Translations under genes and position numbers: made by a program
Virus record (IMG/VR): IMGVR_UViG_3300024264_000019
Location: 1 to 64,000 of that record
From: a virus
Reading direction: 5' to 3' (one strand)
Length of the DNA stretch: 64,000 nt
Shown here: positions 3,757 through 56,028 of the stretch, piece after piece
Layout: every line of letters starts with the position of its first letter
How positions within the stretch are numbered: the first letter of the stretch is position 1
The notes under the pieces: generated by a model
What the model was told of the DNA's origin: nothing
The model's database searches: none
Seen by the model: only the letters and a program-made list of their open reading frames with translations

Positions 3757-3829
3757 GCTGTTTTAATATACACAAGAATAAAAATTTTAACAGCATAATT
3801 GATTTAAAATCAATAAAAAGTATAATGTT

Positions 3830-16198: not shown

Positions 16199-16450
16199 TC
16201 ATCCTTCTTTCCAAGCTTGAGTTCCAAGTACATACATCTTATACTTTTCTCCATCCTCCGAACAATAATCAATTTTCCTAAGTTTTAATTCTAGTAGTGA
16301 TGGCTTGCTATCAACTGTTGGTAAGGGCTGAACTGATTCTCCAGAATCTATGTTAAACCTAAATTCACTGCCATCACTAGTTATTACTATATGAGACTCA
16401 CCATTATCAACGTACATTTTTACTAATTTACTTGCTTTTATATTCCTCAT
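16199..16450 (-). CDS. Hypothetical virion-associated protein
   Basis: 83-aa ORF coupled to the upstream tail gene. Confidence 0.6.
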   Translation of the reverse strand: MRNIKASKLVKMYVDNGESHIVITSDGSEFRFNIDSGESVQPLPTVDSKPSLLELKLRKIDYCSEDGEKYKMYVLGTQAWKEG

Positions 16451-18852
16451 TATCTTATCAGGTTTTGTAGTGATACTTTTGCAGCATCCATACCTCTAAA
16501 ATCTGGAGTGCTTGATTTTTCAGAAAAAGAATATTTTGCATTCATTTTTCCATCGTTAATTGTTATAGATAGAGCTTCTAAAAATTTCATTTGATTTTCT
16601 GTTAACGAGTACAACTCATTAACCAAGGAAAAAGAAATAGTTTCTATAAACGGCACTGAACCAGGTTGACCACAACTAAAACTAAAGGGAGGTCTTTTTA
16701 TGTAATTAACATTATTCTCTCTCCATAAAACTTTTGCCGCTTGCTCTTGATTATACGCTATTCCTTCGTACCAGGATAAGTTATTAACTTTATGAAATTT
16801 ATGTCTATTTAATTTGTAAGCTTGACTATCAGGCGGATCAATAAAGTGGGATTTACATTTTTGTATATGCTCTCTCCTTGATACTGCAATTTTTTCATTT
16901 ATTGTCTCTATCTGCTCTTGTTCCGTTAGAGAGTTTCTATTCTTTCTTAAATTATCCTCACCTAAAGCTGATTTATTTCCAGTATAAAAAGTGTCTGGGT
17001 CTCGAACGCCGCTCCAAAAAGCTCTTGCTCGCCCACCGTTTCTTTTTTCCCCATGTGTATTTATTGTATTAACTGCATTTTGATAAAGATTTTGAGCTCT
17101 CGTGTATAACGTTCCATATTTTACAGCAGCCACTCCGCCAAATTGAGTTCCGCCCTTCGCAAGTGTTGATGCTGATATGTCTATGAAGTTTTCAACTCCA
17201 TTTAGGTTAGCTTCCATTGGTATAGATGGGAATGGTATAGATCCATAATCCGCTAAAATAATTCCCTCATTTGGGTTGTCCGTGCCAACAAGAGAGGCTA
17301 TTGAAGTGCTAGCTCCCTCCCCAGTGAACCCAAACTCTCTTGCCTGGGTCTGCCCTGGAACGAATGATAAACTCGCGGTTCCAGTTATAGTCCAAGTCCT
17401 TGACCCCATCGGCTGAGGAGCTGTTCCGTAATTTTCAAAACCAAAAGTTTGGGGGAAATAATTATCTTTAGCATCGCCCTGTTGAGTTATTCCTTTGGTT
17501 CCTCCAGTATATTCATCCGCTCTCTTTGCATACCAAAATCTTCCATCATTTTCCCAAGCTGTAACAGCTTCGTCAAAATCAACATCTTGCATACCTGAAG
17601 CAAATAAAGCTTGTTTTGCTAATTCGATAAAATCTTCGTTTCTTAAAGCGTATTCAGCGTTTTTATACCACGTGTAACCCGCTAGGTGTTCCATATCATA
17701 TAATTCTGATACTCCAGGATCAACTGGATCTCCGTATTGTGAAATAGCGTAAGCTGCTCCCAGCTCTGTAAAAATAGGGTGGTGTTTAACTATATTCCAA
17801 GCTAAAGCGCTAACATTATACAGATGACCGAATTGCAATTTGCTAGTTAATCTGACATCTCCTGAGTGAAACGTTCCAGAGTTATTTACGTAATAATTAT
17901 TTGTTGTATTGGTTGATGTGTCTTGGTGATCTCTCCTATATCTACCAGGAGTTCTTGATATTAATTGATACTCCGTTTCGTATCCAGCGCTATAATCCTT
18001 AGTTATACTTGAGCTTGTTGCTGAATCTGGAACCGTAATACCATTAAGCGTTAACTTTTCCTTTGTTCCGTATCCTGAATCTATATTCAAGTACTTAATT
18101 CCATGTATTGAATTCGCTACAAATAACTTTCCAAATCTACTACCAATTGATGATAAAACGTCAAAATACGTGCCTGAATCATTAAATACTCCATCTATCG
18201 GACTGGTGTTTTTCACTAGCGGGAAAAAATTAAATAGCTCATGAGCCATGTAATAATATTCTCCAAACTCTACCATCGGGTCAGGCAGACCTGGGCTGTG
18301 ATTTTTAACGAATTCTTCTGGCGTAACGTTAAGAACATTTTCTGGAAGTCCATCATTATTTATAAATAACTTACCAGAATTTAATTTACTATAATAAGCT
18401 CTTAGGTAATTTCTATCAACTAGTATATTTTTAGGAACTCCATCGAATTTTGACATAGGTATTCCACTAATATTAAAAAACTCACGGCCTATAAAAGTAT
18501 CATAAAATCCATCTGCTGGTCCAGCTGCTATGAAACTTGTTGAATACTCCAACCAAATAGTATCAATTAATCTTACATTTGTGACTACCCCAGATGAAGA
18601 TTTATCTACTGAAACTGAAGCCACAGTCCAATTTGAGGGGTTCAATATTGGAATGCCCAACGTTTTAATATAATTTGTTATCTTAAACCCTAAGTCTTTA
18701 TAGTCATCAATCTCTCCAATCAGGGAAGCGTCTATTGTTGGACCTGAAGCTGGAGATAAATTCATATTTAACGAAACGAATCTCGAGCAGAATGCTTCAA
18801 TATTTTTCTTAGTGCAGAGCTGTGTTGGTGTTGGTGTTGGTGTTGTACTCAT
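16450..18852 (-). CDS. Putative tail protein (N-terminal TPTPTPT tract)
   Basis: 800-aa ORF downstream of the TMP in the tail module. Confidence 0.6.
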   Translation of the reverse strand: MSTTPTPTPTQLCTKKNIEAFCSRFVSLNMNLSPASGPTIDASLIGEIDDYKDLGFKITNYIKTLGIPILNPSNWTVASVSVDKSSSGVVTNVRLIDTIWLEYSTSFIAAGPADGFYDTFIGREFFNISGIPMSKFDGVPKNILVDRNYLRAYYSKLNSGKLFINNDGLPENVLNVTPEEFVKNHSPGLPDPMVEFGEYYYMAHELFNFFPLVKNTSPIDGVFNDSGTYFDVLSSIGSRFGKLFVANSIHGIKYLNIDSGYGTKEKLTLNGITVPDSATSSSITKDYSAGYETEYQLISRTPGRYRRDHQDTSTNTTNNYYVNNSGTFHSGDVRLTSKLQFGHLYNVSALAWNIVKHHPIFTELGAAYAISQYGDPVDPGVSELYDMEHLAGYTWYKNAEYALRNEDFIELAKQALFASGMQDVDFDEAVTAWENDGRFWYAKRADEYTGGTKGITQQGDAKDNYFPQTFGFENYGTAPQPMGSRTWTITGTASLSFVPGQTQAREFGFTGEGASTSIASLVGTDNPNEGIILADYGSIPFPSIPMEANLNGVENFIDISASTLAKGGTQFGGVAAVKYGTLYTRAQNLYQNAVNTINTHGEKRNGGRARAFWSGVRDPDTFYTGNKSALGEDNLRKNRNSLTEQEQIETINEKIAVSRREHIQKCKSHFIDPPDSQAYKLNRHKFHKVNNLSWYEGIAYNQEQAAKVLWRENNVNYIKRPPFSFSCGQPGSVPFIETISFSLVNELYSLTENQMKFLEALSITINDGKMNAKYSFSEKSSTPDFRGMDAAKVSLQNLIR

Positions 18853-18860
18853 TTTAAAAA

Positions 18861-20528
18861 TTACACAACAGAATCAAAATATTCCCTTGTTTCCGCTATG
18901 GACGCTTGGCTATTGTTTATATTATAACTTTTATTCTGCCCTATTTTTACTTTTTCTTCACTCGAGAAAAACTCTTGCTCCATGGTTAAGAAAATACTAT
19001 TTATTTTCTCAGTTAATTTATTCAACGCATTATCTTTATCATTTTCTTCATTACCAGTTTTGTTTATGTATTCACCAGATGCGTTAATTGATACAGAGCC
19101 CTTAGTGAAACCAGACCTCGTAACAGTATATTGATTCATACCTCCTCCGAAATTCATATCAACTGAATATTTTGGAGATCTCATATTCACCGAGGATGAA
19201 CATTGAAAATTTTTAAAATCTTCAGGTTTATCTTTATTTGAAAAATTATAATTAAATTTTATTTCACCGCCTTTTTGATTTTCTTCAATACTACTACTTT
19301 CAGGTTCGCCAAGTAATGTCACATTTGTTAAAAATTGATTTATCTCTTGTTGAGCCTCTTGATGAGCCCAGCTTTCGTATAATACTGAATCGTAAGGTTT
19401 ATTTATAAAATTTGAATGCACCAATCTCCATCTTTCCTCAATAGGCCCTTGTGCTAAAATTAATCCGTCTATTGATAAACTTACAACACTATCTTCCCCC
19501 ACGCTTATAGATGTATTTAATTGTGTAGAAACCCCGCACTCATTAAAACTATCATCATTATTAAAATTTAAAGAAAATGAAATTGTTCCAGCTCTCTCGT
19601 TTTCGTTAAAACTAATACTTCTTGGTATTCTATTGTACCCCTCATCCCCGTAAGCGTTAATTATTTCTTGATAGAAATCAATATCCTTAACTTGGTTCCT
19701 AACATCATTAAAATTAGAATCAATTCCAGCTGTTATTTCTCCACTAATTTCTATTTGGTTTATTCCACCAAAAGTACTCGACTTATTAATTGCATATCGA
19801 ACTACGCCAACATCATTCGAGGAGCCATTTTTATCTAATAAATAATTTTCTTGCACTTGTACAGAATTACTTATTCTGTCTATTTTTTCAGACTCAGAGG
19901 TTAATATTAGCGCAGCATTTTCAGATCCTAATGGTTTACTTGTGTTATTTCTTCCTCGAAAATTATCAACAAAATCAATGGCGTTTTGTAAAGCTGAGGA
20001 TATTTCCGTGTCATTCAACCCATTCAATTCTCCATCTTGAGTGTTAATACCATTTGCTGATATCGATCTTTGTATTGAGTAAACATCGTCTTCCATCTTT
20101 TCAATCGAAGTTGAGTTCACGGGTTTATCTATGCCGTAAAATTCGTTATGAGTTAATTCATCGTAGCATTCTATTTTTATTGAATATTCTAGTGTTTTTT
20201 TATAGTCTTGCTCTGGAAAAGAAATCTCTGAAATTATACAGAAATCTTTTTGTAATATTATTTCTCCATCTTCTTTAATTTCAAGTTTTTTAAAATCTTC
20301 AGAAAAAGCTTGAACCAGTTCATCTCTTCTTTGTTTCAAGAAGTTGAAGTAATCGCAATTTGCAATTTCTTCACTAAAATAAATCTGTCCATTTAATTCT
20401 ATTTTTTCTTTTACTCCCTTCTTGTCTCCAAAAAAAACATCTGATGTAGATCTTTTCACCTCGGGAGTTGGTAGATTTTTACTGGAAAAGAAGTCTGCGT
20501 TATTATAAAATATATTTACTTTTTTCAT
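18861..20528 (-). CDS. Putative distal tail/baseplate-type protein
   Basis: Repeated beta-rich units (GTISFSLNF, GEIKFNYNF); likely start is ATG 20528, after the upstream stop at 20533. Confidence 0.55.
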   Translation of the reverse strand: MKKVNIFYNNADFFSSKNLPTPEVKRSTSDVFFGDKKGVKEKIELNGQIYFSEEIANCDYFNFLKQRRDELVQAFSEDFKKLEIKEDGEIILQKDFCIISEISFPEQDYKKTLEYSIKIECYDELTHNEFYGIDKPVNSTSIEKMEDDVYSIQRSISANGINTQDGELNGLNDTEISSALQNAIDFVDNFRGRNNTSKPLGSENAALILTSESEKIDRISNSVQVQENYLLDKNGSSNDVGVVRYAINKSSTFGGINQIEISGEITAGIDSNFNDVRNQVKDIDFYQEIINAYGDEGYNRIPRSISFNENERAGTISFSLNFNNDDSFNECGVSTQLNTSISVGEDSVVSLSIDGLILAQGPIEERWRLVHSNFINKPYDSVLYESWAHQEAQQEINQFLTNVTLLGEPESSSIEENQKGGEIKFNYNFSNKDKPEDFKNFQCSSSVNMRSPKYSVDMNFGGGMNQYTVTRSGFTKGSVSINASGEYINKTGNEENDKDNALNKLTEKINSIFLTMEQEFFSSEEKVKIGQNKSYNINNSQASIAETREYFDSVV

Positions 20529-20532
20529 AAAA

Positions 20533-23500
20533 TTAACATGTTGAAAATACATCATTAATGCAAGGTAGCACTTGTCCAGCATCAGGCCCGTCAGTTAAAT
20601 TCACAGAGCAAGAACAATCGCACTCAGTTTCACCACAATTAGTGAAATATCCAGCGCCACTAATATGCTGCGCTCCACAAAGGGAACAGTCTACGGTAGC
20701 TGGAGTTGGTGTGGTAGTGGTTGTTGAGGTTGGTGTGGTAGTGGTTGTTGAGGTTGGTGTGGTAGTGGTTGTTGAGGTTGGTGTGGTAGTAGTTGTTGAA
20801 GTTTGAGTTAAAGTAGTTGTTGAGGTTGTGGTGCTTGTCGGTGTTAAAGGAGTTTCATAATCGATTACGCAATTCACAGTTAAAGAACTTTCTGAGCAAT
20901 CAACCTCTTTTACAATCACTGAATATATAAGTTCGTTGTTTGAAAACTCATTACAATTGTCATACACTTGGTTTTTATTTAAAACTCTCTGGCCTCTATT
21001 AAATTCTTGCGATAAGGAACAATTTTTATAACCAACAATCTCAAAGCATTTTCCCGAGCTCCAGTTTGATACCCCTGATATAATTTGTTCCGCTAGTGTT
21101 AATGAGGATCCTGTTGGAATTATTATTTCTTGATTTATGTATCTCTGCTCAACGTTGGTAAACTCAGTTCTTTCGCTCCCACAAAGTTTAAAGACAACTG
21201 TGTTGTAAACAACAACTCCATTATTAAAATACGGGTGAGACTGATTGTTCAAATTTGATTTTATTACTTTTGAGGCTGAATTAACACTACCATAAGAATA
21301 CTCAAACGTTCCAGGGTTCACCATTGCTCCCGTGTAATTTTCGTCAGTTCCCATGCAGGAGCCATCGTTACTAGACCTTATTAAACAACTTATATCTTCT
21401 TCATAAAACTCAGGGACGCTAACTTCAAAGAATTCGCAATCATCAGTATATGGAGGGGTAAAATTTGAACCGCCAGGAATATCAAATATAAAACTATACC
21501 ATCTATCTCCAGACCCAGACCTTATACAGTCTTTGACGTTATTATTACTTGCGTATGAATTTGATATTAGTGTTTCGTTTAAAATTGACGCGGATCCACT
21601 ATCATCGAAGCATTGTTTACCTTTGATTAAAACAGCTCCCTGTATATTGACTAGAGCATCTATATTATCGTTAAAATTTTCAGGTATAAACACTTCAACT
21701 CTTTCAGTAGTTTGCGTCGGGGTTGGGGTGGTATTTATGGGTGTTGGGAAAATAGTGGGAGTGGCGGTTTGAGTCGGGGTAGGTGTCTTAAAATAGAAAT
21801 TAAAATCTGTTAACGTGGGTAATGGTGTCGGGGTTAGTTCGACAATTGGTGTTGAAAAATCATAACCATAATCGTTATAGTTCCACGCTTGAGTTGGTGG
21901 TGGCGTAAAACTGTATTGATAATCTATGGGGTTAAATACTTGATTTTCAAACATAGTGGGCGTTGGAACATTCCCCAAATCTACCCACCCATGTTTACTA
22001 TCTCCATCGGTGGATGTCGGGCATTCGGATAGATCTATAACAGATCTATTGTATTGAATTTTATCCTCCTCTTGATTGTGAGAAAAATCTTCGTTTACTG
22101 TAAATTCTAATTTATTATATGTATCTTGTACATAACTTTTAGTTCCCTCCGACCCCAGTCCAAACATTAAATTTTTATGCAAAAGAATAGTTTTTGATGC
22201 GTTTAATAAATCCAGCACACCAACTCCTTTATTTCCAAAAACCGAAATAGATACATTTATACCCTTTGGTTGGAATAAATCTCCCATGAGCTGAGCTACC
22301 GCATTACAATTAACAGCAAACTCATTAAATACCCCAACTCTTTCATCAATAGAAACTTCTATATCGTATTTTTTAACTAAATTTTTAACGGAATCTGGCA
22401 TATCGCTATAGGAAGGCTTATTGCTATATACCAACCCATAGCTTATTCTCCCAGAAACATCCTCAATGGATAAAGTTCTACCTATTTCTATAAAATCCCC
22501 AGATAAACTATACGCTGTCTTTGCGTTATTTATAATCGTATTCTTATTAGAATCAAAATCTAACAAAGATTGCTTTGCGTTTAACTTTCTACTGTTGGAA
22601 TTATCACCCTTGCCCTGCGCCGTTCCATTAAAAGATAATAATTGATACCCTTCCGAGTTTTCTATACTTAAAGAATCTTCAAGCTTATAATATTTACTTG
22701 TTGATTTTACATTCCTAGTGTCATTTGTGTAAGTTATGCTCAGCTCTGATGTGCAACTTTTAAAATCAAATGAAACAGTTTTATTTTCTTCTATATCATA
22801 AATGTTATTTTCATCAATAGTTTGAGTTCTAGTTGGCGTTGGGCATCCAAATTTATAGTAATCATTATAAGACGCTAAAGCGTTAACACATCTATCCCTC
22901 GATGCAGCTTCAACAATGTTTGTGTAATTTTTAATCTTAGCATCTGTTCTTTGTGATAAACATTTAATTTCATTTTTATCAGCGACCGTTATTATTCCCT
23001 CTTCTCCGATCTCAATTGTTAAAGTGTTTTTGTTTGAATAATTTCCAGAATCATCGATTTCTGAATATTTTATTTTTTTTGATATTGAATAAGATAAATT
23101 AATTTCGTCAAAGCTTTCTACCGTCTCAAAATTATCAAAAAGTTTTTGCATTGAATATTTCTCAGAAATACTACTTGTTATTATTGGATACTCCGATGAA
23201 GATGATAATAAAAAACTAGCAAATGCTCTTGATTTCTCTAGAGGTGTGTCTTCTTTTTTACATAAATAAAAATTATCAAAAAAAGTATCTCTACTTTGAT
23301 TTGCATTCAAACTAAATAAAACAGAAGAATTTGATGAGACACTAAACTCAATTTTCTTTCTACCCGTTTTCTCTTCGAGGGATATTGTTTTATCTAAACA
23401 ACTTAGGCTACAAACTCCCACTGAGCTTGAGTCTTGGCCTAGATAATCAAATTCTAGGATGTACGTACCAGCGTCAAGACTTACGCTTTGTGTTGAAGTC

Positions 23501-24129
23501 TCACCAGCTTGCACTTTAATTGAGCCCTTACCTTTGTTTCTTAAATTAGCTATTTTTTGATTCTGTAAAGATGCGTTTTGCCATAAGTTTTTCCTTTTTG
23601 GCATTATCGACGATCTTCTATCAAATGAGCAATCAATCGAGTGGTTAATATCTACATCGTCACCATTTTGTTTAAAGTCAAAGCTTTCACTAATTGATTT
23701 TAAATATTTAAAATCTTCTTCTGATATACTTGAATCACTAAAACTCAAATCGCTAACGCTATTCTGGCTTAATTTTAATTTGGTAATATCAGCTGATTCG
23801 TTAAATTCTATTTGAGCTACGTAACTAGCGTCTTGAATATGACTCCCCCTAACAGAGTAAGATATAATCAATCCCTCTCCGAAACTTACATCATTAATAA
23901 AAATTTCTTGTAAACCATGGCTAATAGATCCATCTTGAGAGTTTAAAGAATTTTCTACCTCAATTAAATCATTAGTTTCTTTTAATATTTGCTTGACCCC
24001 ACTAGTGTTTGATAAACTTAGTAAGTTTCCAGATATGTTTATATTTTTTTTCTTTCTGAAAATTAAATCTGTACCAACCTTACCATTCTCAAACGATACT
24101 CCGAGTATTTCTACGTTATTAAATTTCAT
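20533..24129 (-). CDS. Putative tail protein with Thr/Pro-rich and Cys-rich C-terminal extension
   Basis: First gene after the TMP; GRISYGLVY unit resembles those in the next gene; TPTPTQT and TTTTTPTS tracts; Cys-rich end. Confidence 0.6.
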   Translation of the reverse strand: MKFNNVEILGVSFENGKVGTDLIFRKKKNINISGNLLSLSNTSGVKQILKETNDLIEVENSLNSQDGSISHGLQEIFINDVSFGEGLIISYSVRGSHIQDASYVAQIEFNESADITKLKLSQNSVSDLSFSDSSISEEDFKYLKSISESFDFKQNGDDVDINHSIDCSFDRRSSIMPKRKNLWQNASLQNQKIANLRNKGKGSIKVQAGETSTQSVSLDAGTYILEFDYLGQDSSSVGVCSLSCLDKTISLEEKTGRKKIEFSVSSNSSVLFSLNANQSRDTFFDNFYLCKKEDTPLEKSRAFASFLLSSSSEYPIITSSISEKYSMQKLFDNFETVESFDEINLSYSISKKIKYSEIDDSGNYSNKNTLTIEIGEEGIITVADKNEIKCLSQRTDAKIKNYTNIVEAASRDRCVNALASYNDYYKFGCPTPTRTQTIDENNIYDIEENKTVSFDFKSCTSELSITYTNDTRNVKSTSKYYKLEDSLSIENSEGYQLLSFNGTAQGKGDNSNSRKLNAKQSLLDFDSNKNTIINNAKTAYSLSGDFIEIGRTLSIEDVSGRISYGLVYSNKPSYSDMPDSVKNLVKKYDIEVSIDERVGVFNEFAVNCNAVAQLMGDLFQPKGINVSISVFGNKGVGVLDLLNASKTILLHKNLMFGLGSEGTKSYVQDTYNKLEFTVNEDFSHNQEEDKIQYNRSVIDLSECPTSTDGDSKHGWVDLGNVPTPTMFENQVFNPIDYQYSFTPPPTQAWNYNDYGYDFSTPIVELTPTPLPTLTDFNFYFKTPTPTQTATPTIFPTPINTTPTPTQTTERVEVFIPENFNDNIDALVNIQGAVLIKGKQCFDDSGSASILNETLISNSYASNNNVKDCIRSGSGDRWYSFIFDIPGGSNFTPPYTDDCEFFEVSVPEFYEEDISCLIRSSNDGSCMGTDENYTGAMVNPGTFEYSYGSVNSASKVIKSNLNNQSHPYFNNGVVVYNTVVFKLCGSERTEFTNVEQRYINQEIIIPTGSSLTLAEQIISGVSNWSSGKCFEIVGYKNCSLSQEFNRGQRVLNKNQVYDNCNEFSNNELIYSVIVKEVDCSESSLTVNCVIDYETPLTPTSTTTSTTTLTQTSTTTTTPTSTTTTTPTSTTTTTPTSTTTTTPTPATVDCSLCGAQHISGAGYFTNCGETECDCSCSVNLTDGPDAGQVLPCINDVFSTC
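20701..20840 (-). repeat. 24-bp tandem repeat encoding TTTTTPTS
   Basis: ggttggtgtggtagtggttgttga units on the + strand. Confidence 0.9.
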
Positions 24130-24130
24130 T

Positions 24131-27100
24131 TTATCTTAAAACTCCTTGAGGATCAATTTTAGGAGCTAATGCTGTTGCTAAATAATCAAGTATGACACCC
24201 TCTTGTAATATACTTCTTAATTGATCTCTCATCACTGGAGTTAATACGCCCTTAACCACTTCAGAATTAAAGTCGAAGGTTATTCCTCCTTTAACCTCAT
24301 GATTAATAACTAACCCACCTAACTGCTCAGATAACTGAGCGGGTAATTCTTGAATAACTTTTATCGCTGCAGAAAAATCTTGGCTACCCTCTGGCGGACT
24401 AGTTGTGGGCGGTTTTTCTCCATCTGAATTACCACCATTTGGAGGGGTTTCTACTGGAGGTTCACCCTCTTGACTTGTCAATCTATTAACAAGGTCTTGT
24501 AGTGGAGTTGTGATAGTGCTTAAATTAGTAACTGCTAATCCTTGTTTCCATAAATTACCAAGCTGCACTGTTAATCCCTTTATTGGATCTTTTACTAGAT
24601 TTGGGTCTAAACCTTCTTTTCCAGCCACTTTTTTAAGTTCTTCAGCGACTCTTTCGCTATTTTTTAAATCTGCTTCTAAATTTGCTTTTATTTTTTCAAA
24701 AACAGGTCTTAATTCTGCGGCTTTTTCTGGGTCCATGTTTTGTAACTGTTCCATTATATCATTCACATTAGCTAGAGCAACGATGTAATTTTCTGTATCT
24801 GAATTCAATCCAGTGAAAATCGTCGATGAAACCCCAAGTACATCAGCGAGTGTTCTAAACGCGTCTATACTATCAGCTACAGGTGCAGCTGAATCGTCAG
24901 TAGGTAGGCGACCAAGCGTCGGTATAATTGAGGAGTCAGAGTTTATAGCTGCGTCAACCCCCGTTTTAATATCACCATCATTCAACCTCCGACCTCCTTG
25001 GTTTTCTAGTCTTGAGGATGACGCATCACCTGATGCTATCAGTTGATTAATAGCCACTCTTTGTAGCTCCGCTATCATTTTTTGCGAGCTAGCAACTTCT
25101 AGATCTCTCGCATTCTGAGCTATTCTATTACCCTTTTGCCCCGTGCCCTTAATGGAGCCCAGAAAGCCCTTCATTTCCTTAAGTGTTACATTTCCATCCT
25201 TGTTGCCTGCAGCAAATTCTGCAAACTGCCTTGCTAGCATTTGATTTTGTTCGCTTTGTTGTCTCTGAACATCTTGTTCAAATTTACCTGTTCCACTAGT
25301 GGGTTTAGGTTCTTTTATATTCATCTCTCGTTTTTCAATTTCGCTGGGGTTAAACAAAGCAGACATATCAATATTGCTAGCTACTTCGTTCATTAATTCA
25401 GTAATTAATCCGCTTTCGTTCCTACGCTTAATGTCATCATTCTCAATAGAAGCTTGCCTTCCTTGGAATCCCCTTGGGTCAATATAATTTCTAGATGATA
25501 AATATTCATTAGCTGAAGATCTTGCCATCGTTTTTGTTTCACCTTGGTAATCTTTTAAACTTTGATTTGATTGAAACCTACTCATCATAGTATCAACGTT
25601 TTGTTGAGCTTGCAACATGTTCTGATACTCTGATAGTAGCTTCTCTTCAAGGTTAACTATTTTTGATTGAATTTCTACTGCTTTTTGGATTCCATCACCC
25701 ATACTCTCCAAAGCTTCCTTTCCGTCAAGCGCTGACTGAGCGAATTCTTTTAAAACCGCTCCCCCAAAAGTAAGCATTGTACCATCTTCAGAGGTAGCTA
25801 ATCTATCAAAATTCTCAAAGCTTTGCGCTCCGCCAGGCATTTCTTCTAATGATTTTCCCACTTTTGAAGTTGATAACTTTCCAGTTTTAGCGAAGTTGCT
25901 CATGGCTTCTTTAAATAAATCATTAAAAGCTCTAGCCTCTTCTTGTTGCATTCCCGCGTCTAACTTTAAATCTGTTTGTCTAGCTAAAGCAATTTCTTCC
26001 TGAGTTTTTCCTCGCAAGTCTTCACTACCACTAACAAAAGATGTTCCTTCGGATATTCTACTTGCTACCTGTTGCTGAGCTAGCATTCTCGCTTGAGTTT
26101 CGAAACTATCATTTAAGTTTCTAGCCATATCTGTAGCTTCCCCAAGCTTACCTTGCATAGGATCCCTTCCTGACAAAGTTTCCTTGTTGTAATCATATGT
26201 ATTACCTTCTCCAGTTAAAAAATCAAGACCTGTTTTCGCTCCTGCAACAGCTGTTTGCACTAAATCTCCAAACCAACTTTTTGCAACCGTTCCTGGCCCC
26301 ATCTTATCATCCTCATTAGCAGCTGTTCCAGCTTGAAGTAGTGCAGTTCTTGCTGCTGCTTGTGCCCCCATATTTTTAATAGCTTCTCCTAATAAAGCTA
26401 ATTTTTGGGACGCGCTCATACCTGAGTTAGCTAATTGATTCATTCTTGATTGGACCTCTGGGTCTGAAATTTTATTTATAGATTCTCTTATTTGAGTATT
26501 TGCAGCTATTATTCCCTTTGTATCTCCTGATTGAGAAGCTGCTTGTAGTTGCTGAACTCCCATAGCTAAATTCTGAATACTAGATGTATCCTTCATAACT
26601 TTATCCAAATCCTTCTTGGCTTTACTTAAGGCTTTAAACGTGTCAGCTTGAGAGTCTCTATTGCTCATTTGATTCAGCCCACTACTTACTCCTTGAAAAG
26701 CTCCTAATCCCATACCTATAGGCCCAAAAGCTGCACCCATAGCAGCAGAATTAAGTACATCCATACCTAATCTCCCGCTGCCGCCCACTGCTTCATCCTG
26801 TCTTCCATCCCTTATCATTTCTGCGGCCATTGGTCCCATAAACATCGCCCCCATTGATGCGCCCCCCGCCATTGCATTCGCGTTAGACATTCTCTGCCTA
26901 GCTACAGGAGACAATCCATGTTTTCTAATTTTATTAAAACCTCTACTTCCCTGACTTCTTTGATTGTGCCTGTCTTGTTGTTGTTTTAATTCAAAACCTT
27001 TATCTGAGTCCATTCCAGCGTATGGGTTTAGGATTTTATCTCTACCTAATAATTTACTTTGTTTTCTTTCTTGCTCAAGTTTGAACAGCTCTTTCTCTTT

Positions 27101-30100
27101 TATTAATTTTTTTTCTTCTGGCGATATCGCAAATGAAGGTATTCCGTGAGTTTTTGGATTTAACCCTGTTTTATTAGCTCTGTTAATTCCTTGTTGTATA
27201 CCCATTGGTTCATCAACCGTGTTTATCACAGCGAGTCCCTGTGGGTTCATAGGTCCCTTCAATAAAGAGCTTTTTTCAACTTTTATCTTGCTTGAAGATA
27301 TCCCTCTTTGTTTCAGAGCTTCTGATTCCCTTGCTATCGCTTGATCCAACGCGAAATTTGGCAAAAACCCGTTTCCATAATTTGATATTTTCCCTTTAAA
27401 ACTTGGGTTTGCTGAATGCCTTAGGTACTCAGGGTCCATATTTTTAAGAGATGATACGTTAGCTTTTTTATTATTATAAAAAAGGATTAATTTTTCTTGT
27501 AGCTCTTTTGGTAGATTTTTGAACTCGCTTGAATTTGTAAATCTTTTAATATTATCTAAATCTTGAATTCGATTTCGTTTGCTAATTTTAAATGGTTGTT
27601 TTCTATCTATCGAAGTGACAGGTCGAGTCTTTAATTCTCCTTGTTTTGAACCTTGAATTCTGCGATTAAAATCAGCTACTCTCCCACTAAGATTAGAGAA
27701 CTCTTGACCACCTAAAGGTTTAGATGCTTGAATTTTTTTATTATGAGCAAGTATTAAATTTGCAAGTTTACTAAAGTTTGGAATATGACCTTTAGAAAAT
27801 CCAAGAATTTGAAATACATCATCAATTTTGTCAAGTCCAAATTTTTCATGTATTCTTTGGAACTTTCGAGCTCCCCCTGCGGCTTTTACATACGCATCAA
27901 TTTTGTATTGTTCATTCTTATTTTTTCCAATTTTTAATTCCTTAAGGTATTTATTTTTATTAAACTGCTTAAACCTTCTCGCTGGCCTAGCAAAATTCGG
28001 TATTCTCCCCTCAGAGAATCTATTACTTCTCGATCCAAATCTATACTCTGGTAAACCATCCCCACCAAGCCTCCTCGTTAATGAAGTAGGTCTTTTTTTT
28101 CCTGGTTTACCTCTTTGTGTTTTCTTTGAGTATTTTTGGTAAAACTCATCAAGAGCTTCTTTTTGTATTTTAATTTTTTCTATCTGTTTTTCGATATTTC
28201 TTAACTCGTTAACATCTCCACCTGATCTTCCAGATAATAAATCCATTGCTTTTGATTGAGTTGATTTAAAATCATACTTTATATCTTCGTTTTTTCGTTT
28301 ATAGCTTTCTGCGTCTTTTCTTTTTAAATAAAAAGTGTCTGAACCCATTTTTATAGGAACTCCCGAAACCGACTCTCTTAGACTTTTGGTTAATTTATTA
28401 TTTTTTAATTTGTCTCTGTATTTATACATCGCATATCCCGCCAGCCCAATTCCAGTCCCTACTCCCCCAGTAGTTAATAAATCTCCAACTACCGATCCTC
28501 CTACCCCTGCTCCTCCTGCTCCTCCTACCCCCAAAGCCAACTTTCCTGCGGCTACTGCCTTCCCTCCCAATCCAACTGTCTGCCCGACTGATGATAGTCC
28601 AGATAAACCTTTAATTCCCAAACCTATCGCTCCAGCTCCAGCTCCTAAAGCGCCAGCAACCCCTAGGCGTTTTTTATTTTTATTAAGAAACTCTCTTGGT
28701 TTACTAAATTTCTCTTTTCCGAATTTTTGTAAACCTATTAATTTATTTTGAATATTTAAAAACTGTTTCTGTCCAAATTCTTTCGTTTTAGACGCTCCTG
28801 TTCTAGCGTAATATGTTAATGGTGATATTAATTTTTCACCAAGAAAAGCCTTTCCGTCTTTAATTCTTGAACCTAACTGTTTATAGTTTACATTTGTTAA
28901 TTGGTCAAAGCTTTTATTAAAAATACTAGGACCTTTGGCTTTCCCCGTTTTAGAAACTTCTTCATAATTCTCTAATACATACAATAGATCTCTAAAGGAA
29001 TTAACCCCCTTACCCCAAGCTGAAGAAATACCTTTAAATATTTTTGATCTTTCGGTTTTGTTTTGAATAGATTTAGTTTTTTCAATAATTGATTTTTTAG
29101 TTTTCTCTTCTTTGCTTGACCCTGAACTCCAAGATCCTACTTCAGGGTTAAAAGAGTTTTTTCCAAAACTGTTAAAAAAATCATTCATCCATTTTTTTGA
29201 ATCTTGATATTTGTCTCTTGTTTTTCTAATTTTCTTGTGGCCAAAAGCTAGAACGTTCCTACCCACACTTTTAGATCTTTCGTATTTTTCATTCAAACCT
29301 TCAATAAATCCAGACATGGGCAAACTCATTTTCTTATCTTTAAAATTTTTCAATCCATTTACGACGCTAGAACCAACCCTACTCCCACCTTTCCCCACTA
29401 AGGATAAAGTTTCTGAAATTCCCCTAGTGGCATCAATTTGCCTAAAGGGTCCCGTTGCGGATGCGATTGATCTTACAGCTCCACTAGCAATTGCTTTAGG
29501 TAAATTAATGGCAGTTGATTTCACGAAATTCCCAGCCTTATCCACAAAGTATGTTCCATATTGTTTAACATCCTGTTTCATTCCTTGGAGTTTTTCACGT
29601 CTAGCTGTTCTTTTTTCTATTTGAGCTTTAGCTTTGTTTTCGACCTCAAACAGTCTTTGCACTTTTTTTCCATTAGGGTCTTCGCTACCCTTAAAATCTA
29701 CATTTTTTCCAGTCGACTTGGAATAATATCTTGTCGTTTGAGTTTGGTCATTTGATCCAACAAATTTTAAATCATTATACTTTATTCCATCTGGACCTGT
29801 AGCCCTAAATGTAGCATTCCTAACTATATTTGATCTATTCTTTAAGCTATTTAATTTAGAACTCTCTAAAGCCTCTTTTGCTTCAACAGCTTTTTTAATA
29901 AATTTTTCTTTTTTCTCCAAAGCTTTCTTACTAGCTCTTTCCACAGGGCTCATTAAATTCATATTTCTTAAATCTATTATATTAGCAAGGTCCGAAGGTA
30001 TTGCTCCAACGGTATTCATGAATTTTCCTCCCATAGCTACAGCTTTATCTTTCACCGCAAGTCCTAATTGTTGAGCTTTTTCACTTACATATCCTGGGCT

Positions 30101-33100
30101 TAACATTGACGTGTTTATTCCCCGACCCTTCTTCTTTTTATTTTTTTCTTGGAGTTGTCTTCGTTTTTCGGTTGAGGCTTGCGAGTGAATTACCGTTTGA
30201 TTCAGGAAGTTATCGAGATCCAAACTTCTTCCTCCATTTTTTTGAATTAATGAACTTATACCTTCTCCACTCATTCCCCAATACCCCTTATCTTTAAAGA
30301 AATGTCTCTTGTCAATATCAACTGCAGATCTCATATCTTTTTGTCTTTTCTCTAAGGGTGTCGCTCCTGATCCAAGGAAAAAATTTAAATGTTCTGCTAG
30401 CCCTGATTTTTGTTGAAACTTCACAAGTCTACTGTTCACCTCTCCTTGAATCAGTTTTTTATTCTTAGGGTCTAGTATTATTCTTCTTAAATCTTTTGGC
30501 GATATTTCTTTACCATCAATTTTAATCTCTTGATTTTTCCTGTCTATTACTAAACTTCTGTTTCCAGCAACTTCTTTAGCTTCCTTTGTGAAATTCTTAT
30601 CTCCACTTAACATCGACTCTTTAACTATAGACTCAATAAATCCAACGCTACCAGTATTCGGATCTAATTTTCTAATACTTTTATCTCTATCCCTTAATGC
30701 AAAATTAGGTATGTATCCGCTTGATAAATTCTGAACTCCAATTTGTTTTTCTATATTACCAACTCTTGAAACTAAACCTTGAACCGTATTCTGAATTTGA
30801 GAAACTGCATTCATTGAAACCGCAGCTCCAACAGCACTAGTTTTGGCAATTCTTGAGCTCCTCTTGGTTTGCGAGCCAATACTAGCTTCCTGGTTACCAG
30901 GGAAAGCTCCATAGCCTTTTTGCTTCCCTAAGTATCTCACTCCTGTCATTTTACCGTACTCAACATCAAAACTTTTTTGCCTCAACCATTCTTTTTTTGA
31001 TAGTTTTTTATCGATTAAATAATGGTGATCCATGTGATTATATTTCTTCGAAGCTTCTTTATGGTTTTTAGCGAAACCTGCTGTGACTAAATCTTGCTTT
31101 TGGTTTTTCCTTAGACCTGCAAAATTTGGTATATATCCAGTAGCAGCTTTAGTGAGGGGCCCATAGGACTTTCTGCTCGTCCTCGAAACTTCCATCTGTT
31201 TTTCTTTTTGCGCTTTAGATAGCTTCACTGTGTTTTGCGGTATCTTTAATACCTTTGAGCTAAAATCCCTCTTCGTATCCGCGTTAAGAGCTATTTTTGC
31301 ATCAGCGAATGGAGTGTAATATCCAAATAGCTTTTGAAGTTTTTCGTCAGGAGTACCATTGATATCAAAACTCGCATTGTTTTTTGTAAAAAGCCTGTTT
31401 TTTCCTACAGCCTGCAAAGCTGTTTCAAAAATCGAGCCAGAAGCTGAGCCCACGCTTCCTGCGTTAGCCATTCTACTAATTCCAGGAATATTCATTCCGA
31501 AATTTCCAGCGCCAGCCATTTCTCTAGCTAATCTAGATGACTCCCCAAGCATTAAATCTTCTATTCTGCTTCTTATATTACCTTCTGTATTTTTTAAAGA
31601 CTTTGGTTTTATTCCCTCAACTCTATATTTCATCCTCACATTACCCTTTTCCGTCTTGTAGGAAGTATCAACTCTTCTTCTTATATTGTTTGTAGCTACA
31701 AGCATTGTTGCTTGAGTAGAAGCGTCAATCGTTGGCATTTTATTTTTAATATCTCTAGAAGCTTGCTTTTTTGCCACTATATTTTCTTTAGAGTTTTGAG
31801 CTTTAAAACCTTTTATTTTTTTCTGATCCTCAACGGAAAACATATTTAAATAAACCTTTTCACCCTGCGGGTCTTTAGAGAAATCTCCATCTTTCAACCT
31901 GTTAATTTTTTGAGTAGTAAAGAAACCTTTTTTAGTTTGAACTCCAGCTGCAAAATTTGGAGTCTTAGCTCTAGCTGATCCATATGTCCTGGGATCAACC
32001 CCTTCAGCTTTAGCTCTTTTTATTCCTTGAGAAATTCCCATTGGTTCGTCACGGGTATTGGTGACAGCTAAACCTATTGGGTTTTCTTTTGTAATTAAAT
32101 CTGGACTTCTTTCAATTCTTATTTTTGATCTTGGTACTCCAGCTTCAGTTTCTCTCTGAAGTGCTTCTGATAAAGCGTTTCTCGCAAAATTAGGGATTAA
32201 ATTTGAATTTACTTCAGATGAGTTTGCGTAGTTTGGGATAAAACCTTTCCCCATAGTTTTTATATCAATTTTGCCACCTTTTTTGAAGTGTTTCCTTAGG
32301 GATAATAATTTATCTGGATTATATCCCATCTTCATTAACATCTGAAAATCACCCTCTAAACCTTTTTTGAAATAAGATTCTAGCCAGAGTTTTTGAAACT
32401 CCCCACCCATCCCCTTTTTCACGGTGCTCACGCTCTCTCTTTTGAATAGAGAAGATTTAAATTTTATATTTTTATTAGCTGGATCCTTTAATGTGTCTTG
32501 TATTTTTTGATATCTATTTCTTTTATCAATAAAATTTGGTATAAACCCACTTGAAGCTGACCTAACTCCTCCACTGGGAATTCTATGATTTGGATCTAAA
32601 AACAAACTTTGACTTTGGGAGGAATCTTTTCTTTTAATAAAATCTTCAATTGATTTTGGAATTGTTGCGTTTTTGTTTAAATTATTAGTTACGTATTTTT
32701 TGTAAAATTCTAATTCTTTCTGATTATCAATAGACTTGATTCTTGTTGAGAAAATTTTCGATAATTTATCTTGGCTCGAGTATTTGTATATTGCTTGTTT
32801 ATTTTTAAAATCAGGGTCGATCATGCTCCTTAAAACCCTGAAAGAATCTGTTTGTTTGAAACTTTCTTTATTTGCAGATATTACAGATTGGCTTAATTTA
32901 GTATCTGAGGGAGTTATCATGTTGATTCCTCCACCAAATAAAGCGTTACCAGAGGTTAAATTAATATTTTCTCTTTTATTATTTTTGTGCCCTATTGGTT
33001 TTTCACCCAGCCCTTTTTGTTTCGCAGCTACCATATTTAAATATTGGTCCGCAGCTTTCTTTAAAGCTACAACAACATTTTGCTTTTTAGTGGCTTTTGT

Positions 33101-40833: not shown

Positions 40834-41426
40834 TTTACTGATCTATTAATGTTAATTTTTAAATTATTTAAAATATTTGATAAATATTTAGTATTCCTAA
40901 ATTGTCCTGATCTTACTTTATTTTTAGTTTGAATTCCTTGACCCGATCTACCAGATAGAGTCATCCTGTTTATGTAGTTACCCAAACCAGATATTCCTTT
41001 TTCAATACCTTCAGCCCAACTTCTTCCGCTAACCCAAGGCATTGGGCTAGCTGAGAAAATCTCTTCCTTGGATGGAAGTTCAACTTGAAATTTTAAAATC
41101 ATCGATCTTTGAGAGCTTGGTATTGATTTAATGTTTAAAGCTTTTTTTAATATTAATCTGATTGGAGTTATAGGATCCATTCCTTCCTCAAAACCAATAT
41201 AGGAATATAAATTCCCATATCCACCCAATGTACCGCTTTCATTCCAACCTTCTGGGCCAGATTCAATTTCTTTAGTAACTGGGTGAGATTCAAACTCTTT
41301 AATCATTTCTCTATGAGCTTGGTTTACTCCTTGAATGATTTTTTTCTCAATATGTTTTCCAACTATAGGTCCAACTTGACTATTTTCTATTCTTTTTAAA
41401 GCTCTCTCGTTGATTTTTATATTCAT
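40830..41426 (-). CDS. Putative neck/tail-completion protein
   Basis: Basic protein in the head-tail connector position. Confidence 0.5.
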   Translation of the reverse strand: MNIKINERALKRIENSQVGPIVGKHIEKKIIQGVNQAHREMIKEFESHPVTKEIESGPEGWNESGTLGGYGNLYSYIGFEEGMDPITPIRLILKKALNIKSIPSSQRSMILKFQVELPSKEEIFSASPMPWVSGRSWAEGIEKGISGLGNYINRMTLSGRSGQGIQTKNKVRSGQFRNTKYLSNILNNLKININRSVK

Positions 41427-41427
41427 A

Positions 41428-41874
41428 TCATCCCCTTCTTTTCAAGAGTATATTGTAATATTTAATTGAAAACATGCCAGATTTCGCCGCATCGGAAGAA
41501 ATATTAAAAAGTTCACCATCAACTTCGATATCAGTAGCTTTTTTTAATAAGTTATACCCTTCTTCGTTGATTTTTATTCTTATGTGGTCGGAAGGTATAT
41601 CTATACCTAATATTTCATTTTCACTGCTTTGCCTCAGAAATTCAAAATTTCCAGCATAAGCTATTCTCGCTTTTAATTTTAAAGTCTCAACGATTTTATC
41701 ACTACCTTTTTGATTCTTAATTCTAGAATATAGAGCGTTATAAGTATTATTAGTAGCGACAAAAACTTTTTTTTCTTTTTTAAATATTGTAATCTCTCTA
41801 GCAAAAGTATCATGAATATCATCAAATACTTTATCAAATCTACTTTTATCTGAACTTGATATTAAATCGCTCAT
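41428..41874 (-). CDS. Putative head-closure protein
   Basis: DDIHDTFAREITIF...IEVDGELFNI pattern; start ATG 41874 follows the upstream TAG. Confidence 0.5.
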   Translation of the reverse strand: MSDLISSSDKSRFDKVFDDIHDTFAREITIFKKEKKVFVATNNTYNALYSRIKNQKGSDKIVETLKLKARIAYAGNFEFLRQSSENEILGIDIPSDHIRIKINEEGYNLLKKATDIEVDGELFNISSDAAKSGMFSIKYYNILLKRRG

Positions 41875-41876
41875 TA

Positions 41877-44219
41877 CTATGGAGTTGGAGTTGGAGCTGT
41901 ATTTATTATAAAATTGCACACGCCGTTTGTTCCATTCCACTCAATTGTTGCGCTCACACAGGTTGTGTCATCATCACAATGACAGCATCCTGCACAAGAT
42001 TCAAATACATGTGAGCCTGTTTGAGGCACTTTTTTAATCATCCAGCTATTATATTGACTAACGTCCTGAAACTTATTACCGCCCCCACCGCAACCAATAT
42101 CATCACCCACAAACGCGCTACAGTTACTAACTGGTACGGAATCATTTACTAAATTATAACACCTACTATCCGACATAAATGTATCTAGAGCTACATCGCC
42201 ATCAGCATATCCTATAAATTGATTTTCAATACCAGATATATTTTCTGGACAAGTTAATAAGTCTATGCATCTAGTTGGATCTATCTGGGTAGGATTACAA
42301 GGCGCATATTCAGCACAAAACCCAAAACCGCATGTGGTTTGCGGGCTCGGAGAATTATCTTTGAAAGATTGTAGGGATTTAAAAAATGAAGCTTTTGATT
42401 CAAGCGTAAAAGGCTGAGCGCTAAAAGTAAGAATGTCTGCAATTGATTTCGTTATATAAACCTTATTAGTTGTTAATACATTTGAAAAAGCGGTTATGTT
42501 TAAAGCTGTTACTCCATTAATCTGCAGCTCTATATTTGACTCTTTCTGACCCACTGGCGCTCCTAGGCATATCCTAGCACCAACCAAAGCGTCACTCGTA
42601 TACGAAAGAGTAGAACCTTTTGTTCCATTTGTGGAATTCGCATAGAATATTTCTCCGCCTTCTATGCAGCACTCTAGGGGTGTTGGCGTACTAGTATGAG
42701 TGAGAGTACTTGTTGAAGTGTGAGTGAGTGTTGGCGTACTAGTATGAGTGAGAGTATTTGTCGAAGTATGAGTGAGTGTTGTCGTACTAGTGTGAGTGAG
42801 TGTTGGCGTACTAGTATGAGTGAGAGTACTTGTCGAAGTATGAGTGAGTGTTGTCGTACTAGTGTGAGTGAGTGTTGGCGTACTAGTATGAGTGAGAGTA
42901 CTTGTCGAAGTGTGAGTGAGTGTTGGCGTACTAGTATGAGTGAGAGTACTTGTCGAAGTATGAGTGAGTGTTGGCGTACTAGTATGAGTGAGAGTACTTG
43001 TCGAAGTATGAGTGAGTGTTGGCGTACTAGTATGAGTGAGTGTTGACGTGCTAGTATGAGTAAGCGTTGTTGTCGAAGTGCTAGTAGCTGTTAGCGTTGA
43101 AGTTGGTGTTGGTGTTGGAACATCTGGCGTTTCGGTAGCTGTTGAGGTATGAGTAACTGTTGACGTACTAGTATGAGTGAGTGTTGGCGTACTAGTATGA
43201 GTAACTGTTGACGTACTAGTATGAGTAACTGTTGGCGTACTAGTATGAGTGAGAGTACTTGTTGAAGTGTGAGTGAGTGTTGACGTGCTAGTATGAGTAA
43301 GCGTTGTTGTCGAAGTGCTAGTAGCTGTTAGCGTTGAAGTTGGCGTTGGAACATCTGGCGTTTCAGTTGTTGTCGAAGTGCTAGTAGCTGTTAGCGTTGA
43401 AGTTGGCGTTGGAACATCTGGCGTTTCAGTTGTTGTCGAAGTGCTAGTAACTGTTGGCGTGCTAGTATGGGTGAGAGTAGACGTGGTGGTAGTCGTTTTT
43501 GTAATTGTAGGGGTTACTGTACTTGTTTGCGTCTCGGTCGCTGTAAGGGTGCTAGTTGGCTCATTACACGGCGGTGTAGGGGTCAATGTCGCAGCTTTTT
43601 CTGGACAGTCTACTAATTCTTCTTTACAATCTTTGGGTTTTTTATCACAAGATGTGGTTTTTATGCCCTGACTAACCACCTGTCTTGGTAACGAATTATA
43701 AAGATTATAATATTGCACCATATCTTTAATTCTCAAGTCAGCTTCTTTTGATATAGACTTGTAAGTTTGAGCTGCCTGAATTTTTTGTTGAGGGGTGGTA
43801 ATTAAAGACTGCCTCTTGATAGAAGAATCCCCTTCTCTTAACTCTACCCAGTCAGTCATGGTTACAGAAGACTCCCCTGTTGTAGTGGTTGAACTACTAG
43901 AGGAAACTCCTTTTAATGCTAAGCGACTCTCTCTTTTGTAAAACTCCCTTAAGTATAATTGTATTAAGATAGATATTTCTTCGGGTCTTAACCTTGGACA
44001 TATATCATTCTTCTTAGTTATTCTATGGCTCGAATGTATTAATATATTTAATTGACCTATGTTCGTTTCTATCCAAGCTGAAATTCTAGCTTTGAAGGTC
44101 TTTATTTTGGGAACGTCTTCAGCAACGCCTGAATCAAAAAAGTCATAAAACTCTGATTCGTATATACTTTCAGCTATTTCATCAACTTGACTATATTCGC
44201 AATCACAGTCTTCTAACAT
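41877..44219 (-). CDS. Putative head-tail adaptor with a mucin-like Thr-rich repeat and Cys-rich C-terminal domain
   Basis: ~190-aa helical N-terminal domain in the adaptor position, then ~300 aa of TLTHTS(T/P) repeats, then a Cys-rich domain. Confidence 0.6.
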   Translation of the reverse strand: MLEDCDCEYSQVDEIAESIYESEFYDFFDSGVAEDVPKIKTFKARISAWIETNIGQLNILIHSSHRITKKNDICPRLRPEEISILIQLYLREFYKRESRLALKGVSSSSSTTTTGESSVTMTDWVELREGDSSIKRQSLITTPQQKIQAAQTYKSISKEADLRIKDMVQYYNLYNSLPRQVVSQGIKTTSCDKKPKDCKEELVDCPEKAATLTPTPPCNEPTSTLTATETQTSTVTPTITKTTTTTSTLTHTSTPTVTSTSTTTETPDVPTPTSTLTATSTSTTTETPDVPTPTSTLTATSTSTTTLTHTSTSTLTHTSTSTLTHTSTPTVTHTSTSTVTHTSTPTLTHTSTSTVTHTSTATETPDVPTPTPTSTLTATSTSTTTLTHTSTSTLTHTSTPTLTHTSTSTLTHTSTPTLTHTSTSTLTHTSTPTLTHTSTSTLTHTSTPTLTHTSTTTLTHTSTSTLTHTSTPTLTHTSTTTLTHTSTNTLTHTSTPTLTHTSTSTLTHTSTPTPLECCIEGGEIFYANSTNGTKGSTLSYTSDALVGARICLGAPVGQKESNIELQINGVTALNITAFSNVLTTNKVYITKSIADILTFSAQPFTLESKASFFKSLQSFKDNSPSPQTTCGFGFCAEYAPCNPTQIDPTRCIDLLTCPENISGIENQFIGYADGDVALDTFMSDSRCYNLVNDSVPVSNCSAFVGDDIGCGGGGNKFQDVSQYNSWMIKKVPQTGSHVFESCAGCCHCDDDTTCVSATIEWNGTNGVCNFIINTAPTPTP
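42680..43560 (-). repeat. 24-bp tandem repeat array encoding TLTHTST(P/S/T), with ETPDVPTPT units
   Basis: Repeated gtactagtatgagtgagtgttggc / gtacttgtcgaagtatgagtgaga units. Confidence 0.95.
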
Positions 44220-55836: not shown

Positions 55837-56028
55837 TTAAATTCTTTCAATAGTTTTAGCTTCAAGTTTAAGCGTTCCTTTTTTAAATAAACCTTCATTA
55901 TTATCAAGCAAAATAATAACAAAAGTTTTCCCATGATCGTCAAACCCTATTTGTGTATAAATTTTAATTACTTTTCCCGACTTAATGTCATTATCATAAT
56001 GAAATTTAATATAATCCCCCTCTTTCAT
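55837..56028 (-). CDS. Hypothetical protein (SH3/KOW-like)
   Basis: MKEGDYIKF...SGKVIKI; ATGA overlap with the subtilisin stop. Confidence 0.45.
   Translation of the reverse strand: MKEGDYIKFHYDNDIKSGKVIKIYTQIGFDDHGKTFVIILLDNNEGLFKKGTLKLEAKTIERI

Follow-up and report, generated by a model that had tools for sequence, protein, structure and literature searches.

Phage tape measure proteins (TMPs) are usually seen as rulers and channel formers: they sit in the tail tube, exit first at infection, before the DNA does, and contribute to the channel through which it passes. Here we analyze the TMP of an uncultured aquatic phage, encoded in a stretch of viral DNA of 64,000 nucleotides (positions 1 to 64,000 of the IMG/VR record IMGVR_UViG_3300024264_000019, hereafter the window). 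A short conserved peptide recurs within this protein and separates segments, hereafter modules, that vary among related TMPs. Enzyme domains embedded in TMPs are known from mycobacteriophage TM4, which has a peptidoglycan-hydrolase motif, and from pb2 of T5. The likeness to the protein studied here lies in a common PF10145 scaffold and in added catalytic domains that travel with the ejected TMP. However, those proteins carry single cell-wall enzymes, whereas the wall enzymes of the present family lie outside the peptide-fenced rack of modules. Polymorphic toxins provide another parallel. Their junction motifs (VENN in CdiA, DPxGL in Rhs) mark the point at which variable modules are exchanged, and the Rhs motif is also a self-cleavage site. 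They resemble the present case in having a short conserved motif at the exchange point, but each toxin varies at a single tip and is accompanied by immunity genes, whereas in the present family the junctions follow each other, up to a dozen or more of them, in a structural protein of the virion.

Three published systems come closer in other respects. The TMP gp96 of the Thermus phage P23-45 has 5,002 amino acids (aa), and its N-terminal part constitutes a virion RNA polymerase, proposed to act at the TMP pore during DNA entry (Nat Commun 2024, PMC10770324). Like the window TMP, it is a giant TMP bearing a large folded enzyme, and it is an experimental precedent for TMPs as carriers of cytoplasm-bound enzymes. 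However, it is one fixed N-terminal fusion, and the accessible part of that account has no mention of a repeated junction peptide, of a rack with several modules, of bookend domains, or of modules being exchanged. Polyvalent proteins, which occur in phages and conjugative elements, combine 2-15 unrelated effector domains in one polypeptide that is delivered with the invading DNA, and their processing into separate units has been predicted (Iyer et al. 2017, PMC5512222). The virion examples given there are incorporated in phage heads and the processing is ascribed to an embedded zincin-like peptidase. One of the modules in a relative of the window TMP is ART-PolyVal, a domain first defined there. 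In contrast to polyvalent proteins, the scaffold is here a TMP, no peptidase domain was detected (see below), and a conserved peptide fences every module; the word "tape" does not occur in that paper. Finally, the Sle1-type effectors of actinobacterial contractile injection systems combine a TMP-derived scaffold with an exchangeable functional domain, and are packaged in and released from a tail-like particle (J Bacteriol 2026, PMC13277306). They belong to a cellular injection system and have a single variable C-terminal domain, and the abstract of that report does not mention a junction peptide. Our literature searches on the peptide and on TMP effector cassettes found no paper that describes successive exchangeable modules fenced by a recurring junction peptide within a TMP.

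Junction peptides and module exchange

The window TMP is encoded by a single open reading frame (ORF) of 3827 aa that lacks cysteine (Table 1). The N-terminal part matches PF10145 with 105 bits (cut-off 33.2), as well as nine PHROG tape measure families. Judging from these matches, the ORF is a TP901-family TMP, as claimed in a first-pass annotation made from the DNA sequence alone. That annotation also described an insert rich in Lys and Arg, and the region is indeed strongly basic, with a net charge of +223 over aa 541-2830, while the N-terminal part has +9 and the C-terminal part -19. Relatives with 3383-3626 aa reach up to 98% identity to this TMP.

Twelve copies of a short peptide, hereafter the junction peptide, divide the insert, and all of them were found within a few bases of the positions previously listed. 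Copies of the form G-x-[IL]-P-N-[FY] start at aa 642, 1023, 1124, 1493, 1633, 2609, and 2749, and GRIPNF (aa 2536) likewise fits this form. The remaining copies are NLIPNF (aa 1138), KTPNF (aa 1217), GFLPSL (aa 558), and GIPSF (aa 2824), the last three of which are degenerate, as is GFIPNY. The exact string [IL]PNF occurs 8 times, while 0.04 occurrences are expected from the composition of the protein. Synonymous codons vary from copy to copy (CCT/CCA/CCG, AAT/AAC, TTT/TTC, ATA/ATC/ATT), in agreement with the earlier claim that the peptide is conserved at the protein level.

The peptide is the mark of a large family. Searches with the insert retrieved giant TMPs, of 2,100-4,000 aa, which have in common the peptide, a domain of ~75 aa, and the N-terminal part of the TMP. 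We found more than 560 loci in scans of IMG/VR and 37 in scans of species genomes. The 27 closest among the latter are nearly all metagenome bins, of varied and mostly aquatic-type lineages, and the rest are distant TP901-type matches. The pattern [GSAN]-x-[ILVM]-P-N-[FY] occurs 386 times in 81 unique related TMP ORFs (1.5 expected). The family consensus is A-[AS]-x-G-[FY]-[IV]-P-N-F-A, where Pro and Asn are invariant and Gly is conserved at 98%, with 2 to 13 copies per TMP. The stricter pattern G-[FYLH]-[ILVM]-P-N-[FY] is absent from the non-TMP ORFs of ~965 kb of flanking DNA, the sole exception being a TMP interrupted by a frameshift. Among 1.84 billion cluster representatives, 1394 matched a profile of the minimal cassette (described below) at E<=0.001, and 1207 did so at E<=1e-10; in full-length matches to this profile the cassette starts near residue 520. 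We found no match among the cultured phages of a GenBank-derived collection, either by megablast with the window TMP or by tblastn with the cassette of a relative. In a relative from a Neomarinimicrobiota bin (L005:9986-30594), two overlapping ORFs, one of 1034 aa and one of 5940 aa, make up the TMP frame; the product would have ~7,000 aa if these form one gene, and further junction peptides are carried there.

Since TMPs often hold periodic aromatic repeats, the peptide could be one more ordinary repeat of a tape measure, or the result of chance in a long protein of biased composition. We give this explanation a negligible probability. The excess of copies is ~200-fold or more, their spacing is irregular across the family (14 to 903 aa in the window), and the segments that they separate are mostly unrelated to one another, at least one of them being predicted to be globular. 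The first-pass annotation had already opposed this arrangement to the short periodic repeats of TMPs. Its statement that the segments are unrelated holds for most of them, but a conserved domain of ~75 aa, hereafter domain B, is present twice, at aa 1123-1222 and at aa 2740-2829, with 50% identity between the copies.

The smallest members of the family display the basic architecture: the N-terminal TMP part, a degenerate peptide, domain A (~80-90 aa), a peptide, one module (~210-300 aa), a peptide, domain B (~55-77 aa, with the core NPMGLAVTNTRDEP), a peptide, and a long C-terminal part. In larger members, the window TMP among them, up to ten or more extra modules, likewise fenced by peptides, separate A from B. 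The window TMP reads A, m4, m8, B (copy 1), m2, m140a, m903, m9, m140b, and B (copy 2). Across the family, A and B, in the same protein, are the only constant companions of the peptide. The ESM Atlas matches of domain A are unnamed viral clusters only, and we found no stand-alone domain B proteins (48-154 aa).

The boundaries of the modules coincide with the peptide. When the window insert was compared with 120 relatives, 71% of the 463 ends of local homology were at most 10 aa away from a peptide copy, against 10% for random positions. The first-pass annotation had proposed to look for differences in module content and order between motif boundaries, and relatives do differ in both, exactly at the peptide. 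More precisely, close relatives have identical module clusters in differing order. P0008 and P0009 were aligned over their first ~990 aa, where they are 97% identical; a gap of 72 aa in this region has roughly the size of a single peptide-to-peptide unit and corresponds to the homologue of m9. In P0004, the homologue of m140b is a tandem duplicate unit with 133 of 140 residues identical between copies. A 98%-identical relative lacks ~190-200 aa of m903 (roughly aa 1900-2090). Overall, 142 TMP ORFs contain 307 unique modules that fall in 95 clusters. We thus hold with high confidence that this architecture evolves by the gain, loss, duplication, and reordering of peptide-to-peptide units.

Indels, duplications, and reordering exactly between copies are also what crossover points predict. 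The peptide could in this case be a recombination footprint, i.e., a short DNA segment shared by module ends, as in polymorphic toxin loci, without a function in the protein. This is improbable. Homologous recombination would find little to act on in eighteen degenerate bases. Furthermore, the codons vary, yet Pro, Asn, and Gly are conserved as described above in a family whose other parts are ~25-40% identical. Because the amino acids are conserved while the codons vary, selection would act on the peptide and not on the DNA.

Table 1. Features of the tape measure gene, with positions in the window and residues in the protein, from the N to the C terminus
Feature	Position	Strand	Residues (aa)	Remarks
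TMP ORF	24131-35614	(-)		3827 aa, single ORF
PF10145 PhageMin_Tail	34673-35281	(-)	112-314	E 6.3e-30
Hydrophobic segment	34265-34366	(-)	417-450	Ahead of the cassette region, N-terminally; peak 1.85
Junction peptide 0	33926-33943	(-)	558-563	Degenerate GFLPSL; conserved there in the family as GG[FY][ILM]P
Domain A	33692-33925	(-)	564-641	Small beta domain; present in 115/120 relatives
Junction peptide 1	33674-33691	(-)	642-647	GFIPNF
Module m4	32549-33673	(-)	648-1022	375 aa; 16/120 relatives
Junction peptide 2	32531-32548	(-)	1023-1028	GFIPNF
Module m8	32246-32530	(-)	1029-1123	95 aa; 16/120 relatives
Junction peptide 3	32228-32245	(-)	1124-1129	GFIPNY
Junction peptide 4	32183-32203	(-)	1138-1144	NLIPNFA
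Domain B, copy 1	31970-32182	(-)	1145-1215	Core NPxGLAVTNTRDEP
Junction peptide 5	31949-31969	(-)	1216-1222	Degenerate AKTPNFA
Module m2	31145-31948	(-)	1223-1490	268 aa; globular (AlphaFold2)
Junction peptide 6	31118-31138	(-)	1493-1499	GYIPNFA; low pLDDT in the m2 model
Module m140a	30725-31117	(-)	1500-1630	2/120 relatives
Junction peptide 7	30698-30718	(-)	1633-1639	GYIPNFA
Segment m903	28016-30697	(-)	1640-2533	894 aa; lineage-specific, Lys-rich
Gly/Ala-rich hydrophobic stretch inside m903	28436-28669	(-)	2316-2393	~80 aa; glycine-zipper type
Junction peptide 8	27989-28009	(-)	2536-2542	GRIPNFA
Module m9	27797-27988	(-)	2543-2606	One-unit indel, P0008 vs P0009
Junction peptide 9	27770-27790	(-)	2609-2615	GHIPNFS
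Module m140b	27377-27769	(-)	2616-2746	Tandem duplicate in P0004
Junction peptide 10	27350-27370	(-)	2749-2755	GFLPNFA
Domain B, copy 2	27149-27349	(-)	2756-2822	
Junction peptide 11	27128-27145	(-)	2824-2829	Degenerate GIPSFA
C-terminal TMP part	24134-27127	(-)	2830-3827	Net acidic
Hydrophobic stretch in the C-terminal part	26687-26758	(-)	2953-2976	

Predicted folds and candidate activities of the modules

We modeled two parts of the family with AlphaFold2. For this and the profile analyses below we used collinear or single-module alignments (A4, A6, and A7), and left out two others (A2 and A5) where MAFFT had stacked unrelated peptide-flanked fragments. Module m2, modeled as aa 1212-1502 from an alignment of 67 rows, is predicted to be a mixed alpha/beta globule, with a mean predicted local distance difference test (pLDDT) of 85.5 and a predicted template modeling score of 0.74; the ends with low confidence coincide with the peptide. 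The minimal cassette of a relative (L082, a collinear alignment of 62 rows) was modeled with A, the module, and B all folded, and all four copies of the peptide in stretches with pLDDT <50. These two models suggest that the m2 segment is not the continuous helical tape that the first-pass annotation had named as the alternative to globular cargo, and that the peptide behaves as a linker element. At least one window module is thus confidently predicted to have a globular fold. A predicted complex of domains A and B, which explored the idea of a clasp, scored 0.01 and is evidence neither way.

Neither model has a match among solved structures (Foldseek E >0.1, VIA-align Z <=5.0 and restricted to a helical hairpin). 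For m2 against the PDB, the best Foldseek hit has an E of 0.12 and the best VIA-align hit a Z of 4.7, again for a helical hairpin only. The m2-type module of relatives (alignment A4) had zero matches when its profile was searched against the PDB.

The window TMP has about ten modules, mostly mutually unrelated, and none of them matches a Pfam family. Pfam finds nothing in the window insert and almost nothing in those of six relatives, and among 85 module representatives there are three clear matches. One is an ART-PolyVal ADP-ribosyltransferase (E 1.5e-5, L045:13727-14365). The second is a PolyA_pol head domain (PF01743, of the poly(A)-polymerase/CCA-adding nucleotidyltransferase type; E 9.3e-15, L047:13619-15016), which is peptide-fenced inside a tape measure ORF of 4126 aa and may be a tail-carried enzyme for tRNA repair or RNA tailing. 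The third is DUF7178 (E 3.5e-17). By these assignments, the fenced modules are of a cytoplasm-type kind, unlike the wall enzymes, which in relatives lie beyond the last peptide copy: P0012 has a VanY there (aa 3280-3362), and P0021 a stretch resembling a glucosaminidase (near aa 1701).

The first-pass annotation had counted nucleases among the cargo. In m4, the invariant residues are G150 E151, F175 D176, E191 x K193, and K206 (GxxGE..FD..ExK..K; alignment A7, 8 sequences). In m2, a Gly, D206, and K229 are invariant and E186 and K243 are nearly so (E..D..(D/E)xK..K; alignment A6, 67 sequences). The charged residues of both modules thus follow the order typical of PD-(D/E)xK nucleases. This residue pattern is what stands of the claim. 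We found no nuclease match for the window modules by Pfam, none for m2 by Foldseek or VIA-align, and none for the m2-type modules of relatives by PDB profile, while the weak ESM Atlas leads for m4 (Tox-REase-7 at 0.80, Mrr_cat at 0.79) are under the reliability mark. Because there is no match by fold or profile, "nuclease" is only a lead for these two modules. Similarly, because the modules have no Pfam match and m2 no PDB fold match, enzymatic cargo is only putative in the window's own TMP. Homology between m4 and m2 was considered and rejected, as hhalign aligned the junction peptide alone.

Proposed delivery and handling of the modules

The best overall explanation of these observations, to which we give an even chance of being right, is that this giant TP901-family TMP is a variable cargo rack. 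The window TMP has three hydrophobic segments of membrane type (aa 417-450, 2316-2393, and 2953-2976; Kyte-Doolittle scores in windows of 19 aa). Because TMPs exit ahead of the DNA, and because the basic rack (+223) is flanked by hydrophobic segments, we propose that the rack would most likely come to lie on the cytoplasmic side of the host membrane, bringing ready-made proteins with it. On these sequence features, we lean slightly towards the view that the modules are delivered into the host.

The junction peptide would then most likely be the signal where each module is separated or handled. In the preferred form of this proposal, proteolysis would take place after the invariant Phe (Ile/Val at P4, Phe at P1, and Ala at P1'). 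The strict asymmetric consensus ending in Phe-Ala, along with the position in flexible linkers, makes the peptide fit a recognition site. Cleavage there, as suggested by the sequences and the models, is nonetheless a tentative and rather doubtful proposal. As the TMP must stay whole while setting tail length, cleavage could only be late, i.e., after tail assembly or after ejection.

Several observations weigh against a rack of separable cargo. Cutting every copy of the peptide would sever the N- and C-terminal parts of the TMP, which calls for tight timing. PNF-like strands lie within the folded domain A of many relatives, so the peptide may also be structural. Some 2,300 residues per chain, partly globular, may have to fit in the tail tube. 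About 80 of the 85 module representatives match no known family, and the window modules lack the Pfam and PDB matches mentioned above. Finally, we found no conserved protease. Pfam peptidases are missing from the window TMP and from six relatives (E<=0.1 to 1), save for the VanY of P0012, which is outside the cassette.

The window does encode a subtilase (56025-57230, (-) strand; Peptidase_S8, E 3e-42), with a linker of Pro-Glu-Lys repeats and a C-terminal hydrophobic anchor, which is unusual for a phage. A subtilase would be compatible with Ile or Val at P4 and Phe at P1. We rejected this enzyme as the general processing factor, since its family (PF00082) is missing from the records of four relatives, two of which are 100% complete.

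Domains A and B being the sole constant companions of the peptide, self-processing by these domains, or docking on them, is possible. The most ambitious version of the cargo proposal, which we judge to be fairly unlikely, is that the peptide is a dedicated signal for release or handling, cut in the cytoplasm by A/B or by a universally conserved host factor, and that the TMP is a programmable injection rack that disarms host defences. If this were true, phages of many aquatic bacterial lineages would fire interchangeable enzymes (ADP-ribosyltransferases, nucleotidyltransferases, and nuclease-like modules) ahead of their DNA.

The main rival explanation, itself unlikely in our view, is that the peptide is never cleaved and serves for docking or spacing, the TMP being in one piece before and after ejection. 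The partner could be the tube lumen, an assembly chaperone, or the A or B of a neighbouring chain; else the peptide would simply space the modules like beads in register. Much of what we found is compatible with this: A and B alone always accompany the peptide, the beta sheet of A contains the PNF-like strands in many relatives, the search for a conserved protease was negative, and measuring the tail requires an intact TMP. In line with this, the polymerase of P23-45 gp96 is proposed to act while fused to the TMP. However, the peptide copies are unstructured and undocked in both models, and a strict, asymmetric consensus of 10 residues with Phe-Ala at its end resembles a recognition site more than a spacer. 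In addition, the number of copies (2-13) and their irregular spacing are a poor fit to a periodic register of binding to the tube. We also noted a likeness of I-P-x-F to the C-terminal peptides of FtsZ and SSB and to Hsp70-binding sites, and discarded it as too short to support a relation.

Genome context and implications

The terminase large subunit (50612-52471) is encoded on the same strand as the TMP. Large ORFs of 1198, 573, and 800 aa follow the TMP, and none of the immediate neighbours matched a known tail family. We tested nine large ORFs (16450-24129 and 35644-44219, (-) strand; up to 1198 aa) and found no PHROG or Pfam match, except for a sulfotransferase in the tail block, two ORFs upstream of the TMP gene (37522-38229, (-) strand; PF03567, E 8.9e-16). 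As the large ORFs around the TMP otherwise match no family of these databases, annotation of the tail genes is essentially impossible in this phage lineage. We did not detect PF04984, a family of tail sheath proteins, in the record of the window nor in those of four relatives, and the sequences give weak support for a non-contractile tail. The terminase region lies between a gene for a PhoH-like ATPase that flanks it (57453-58178, (-) strand; E 3.6e-46) and one for an ERCC4-type nuclease, directly downstream of the terminase gene (52485-53414, (-) strand; PHROG 3490, E 1e-9).

In this family of roughly 1,400 protein clusters, the ruler of the tail is used as a rack of exchangeable folded modules, with a single peptide, strictly conserved, joining them. 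Provided that these modules are delivered, the rack would constitute a second entry route for phage effectors made in advance, besides the proteins packaged in heads. It would also represent a large reservoir of unknown enzymes for host takeover or anti-defence, as our small sample alone has 95 module clusters, most of which match no known family. The junction peptide itself offers a simple handle to delimit modules, to design tests of processing, and perhaps to build phage tails that carry cargo.

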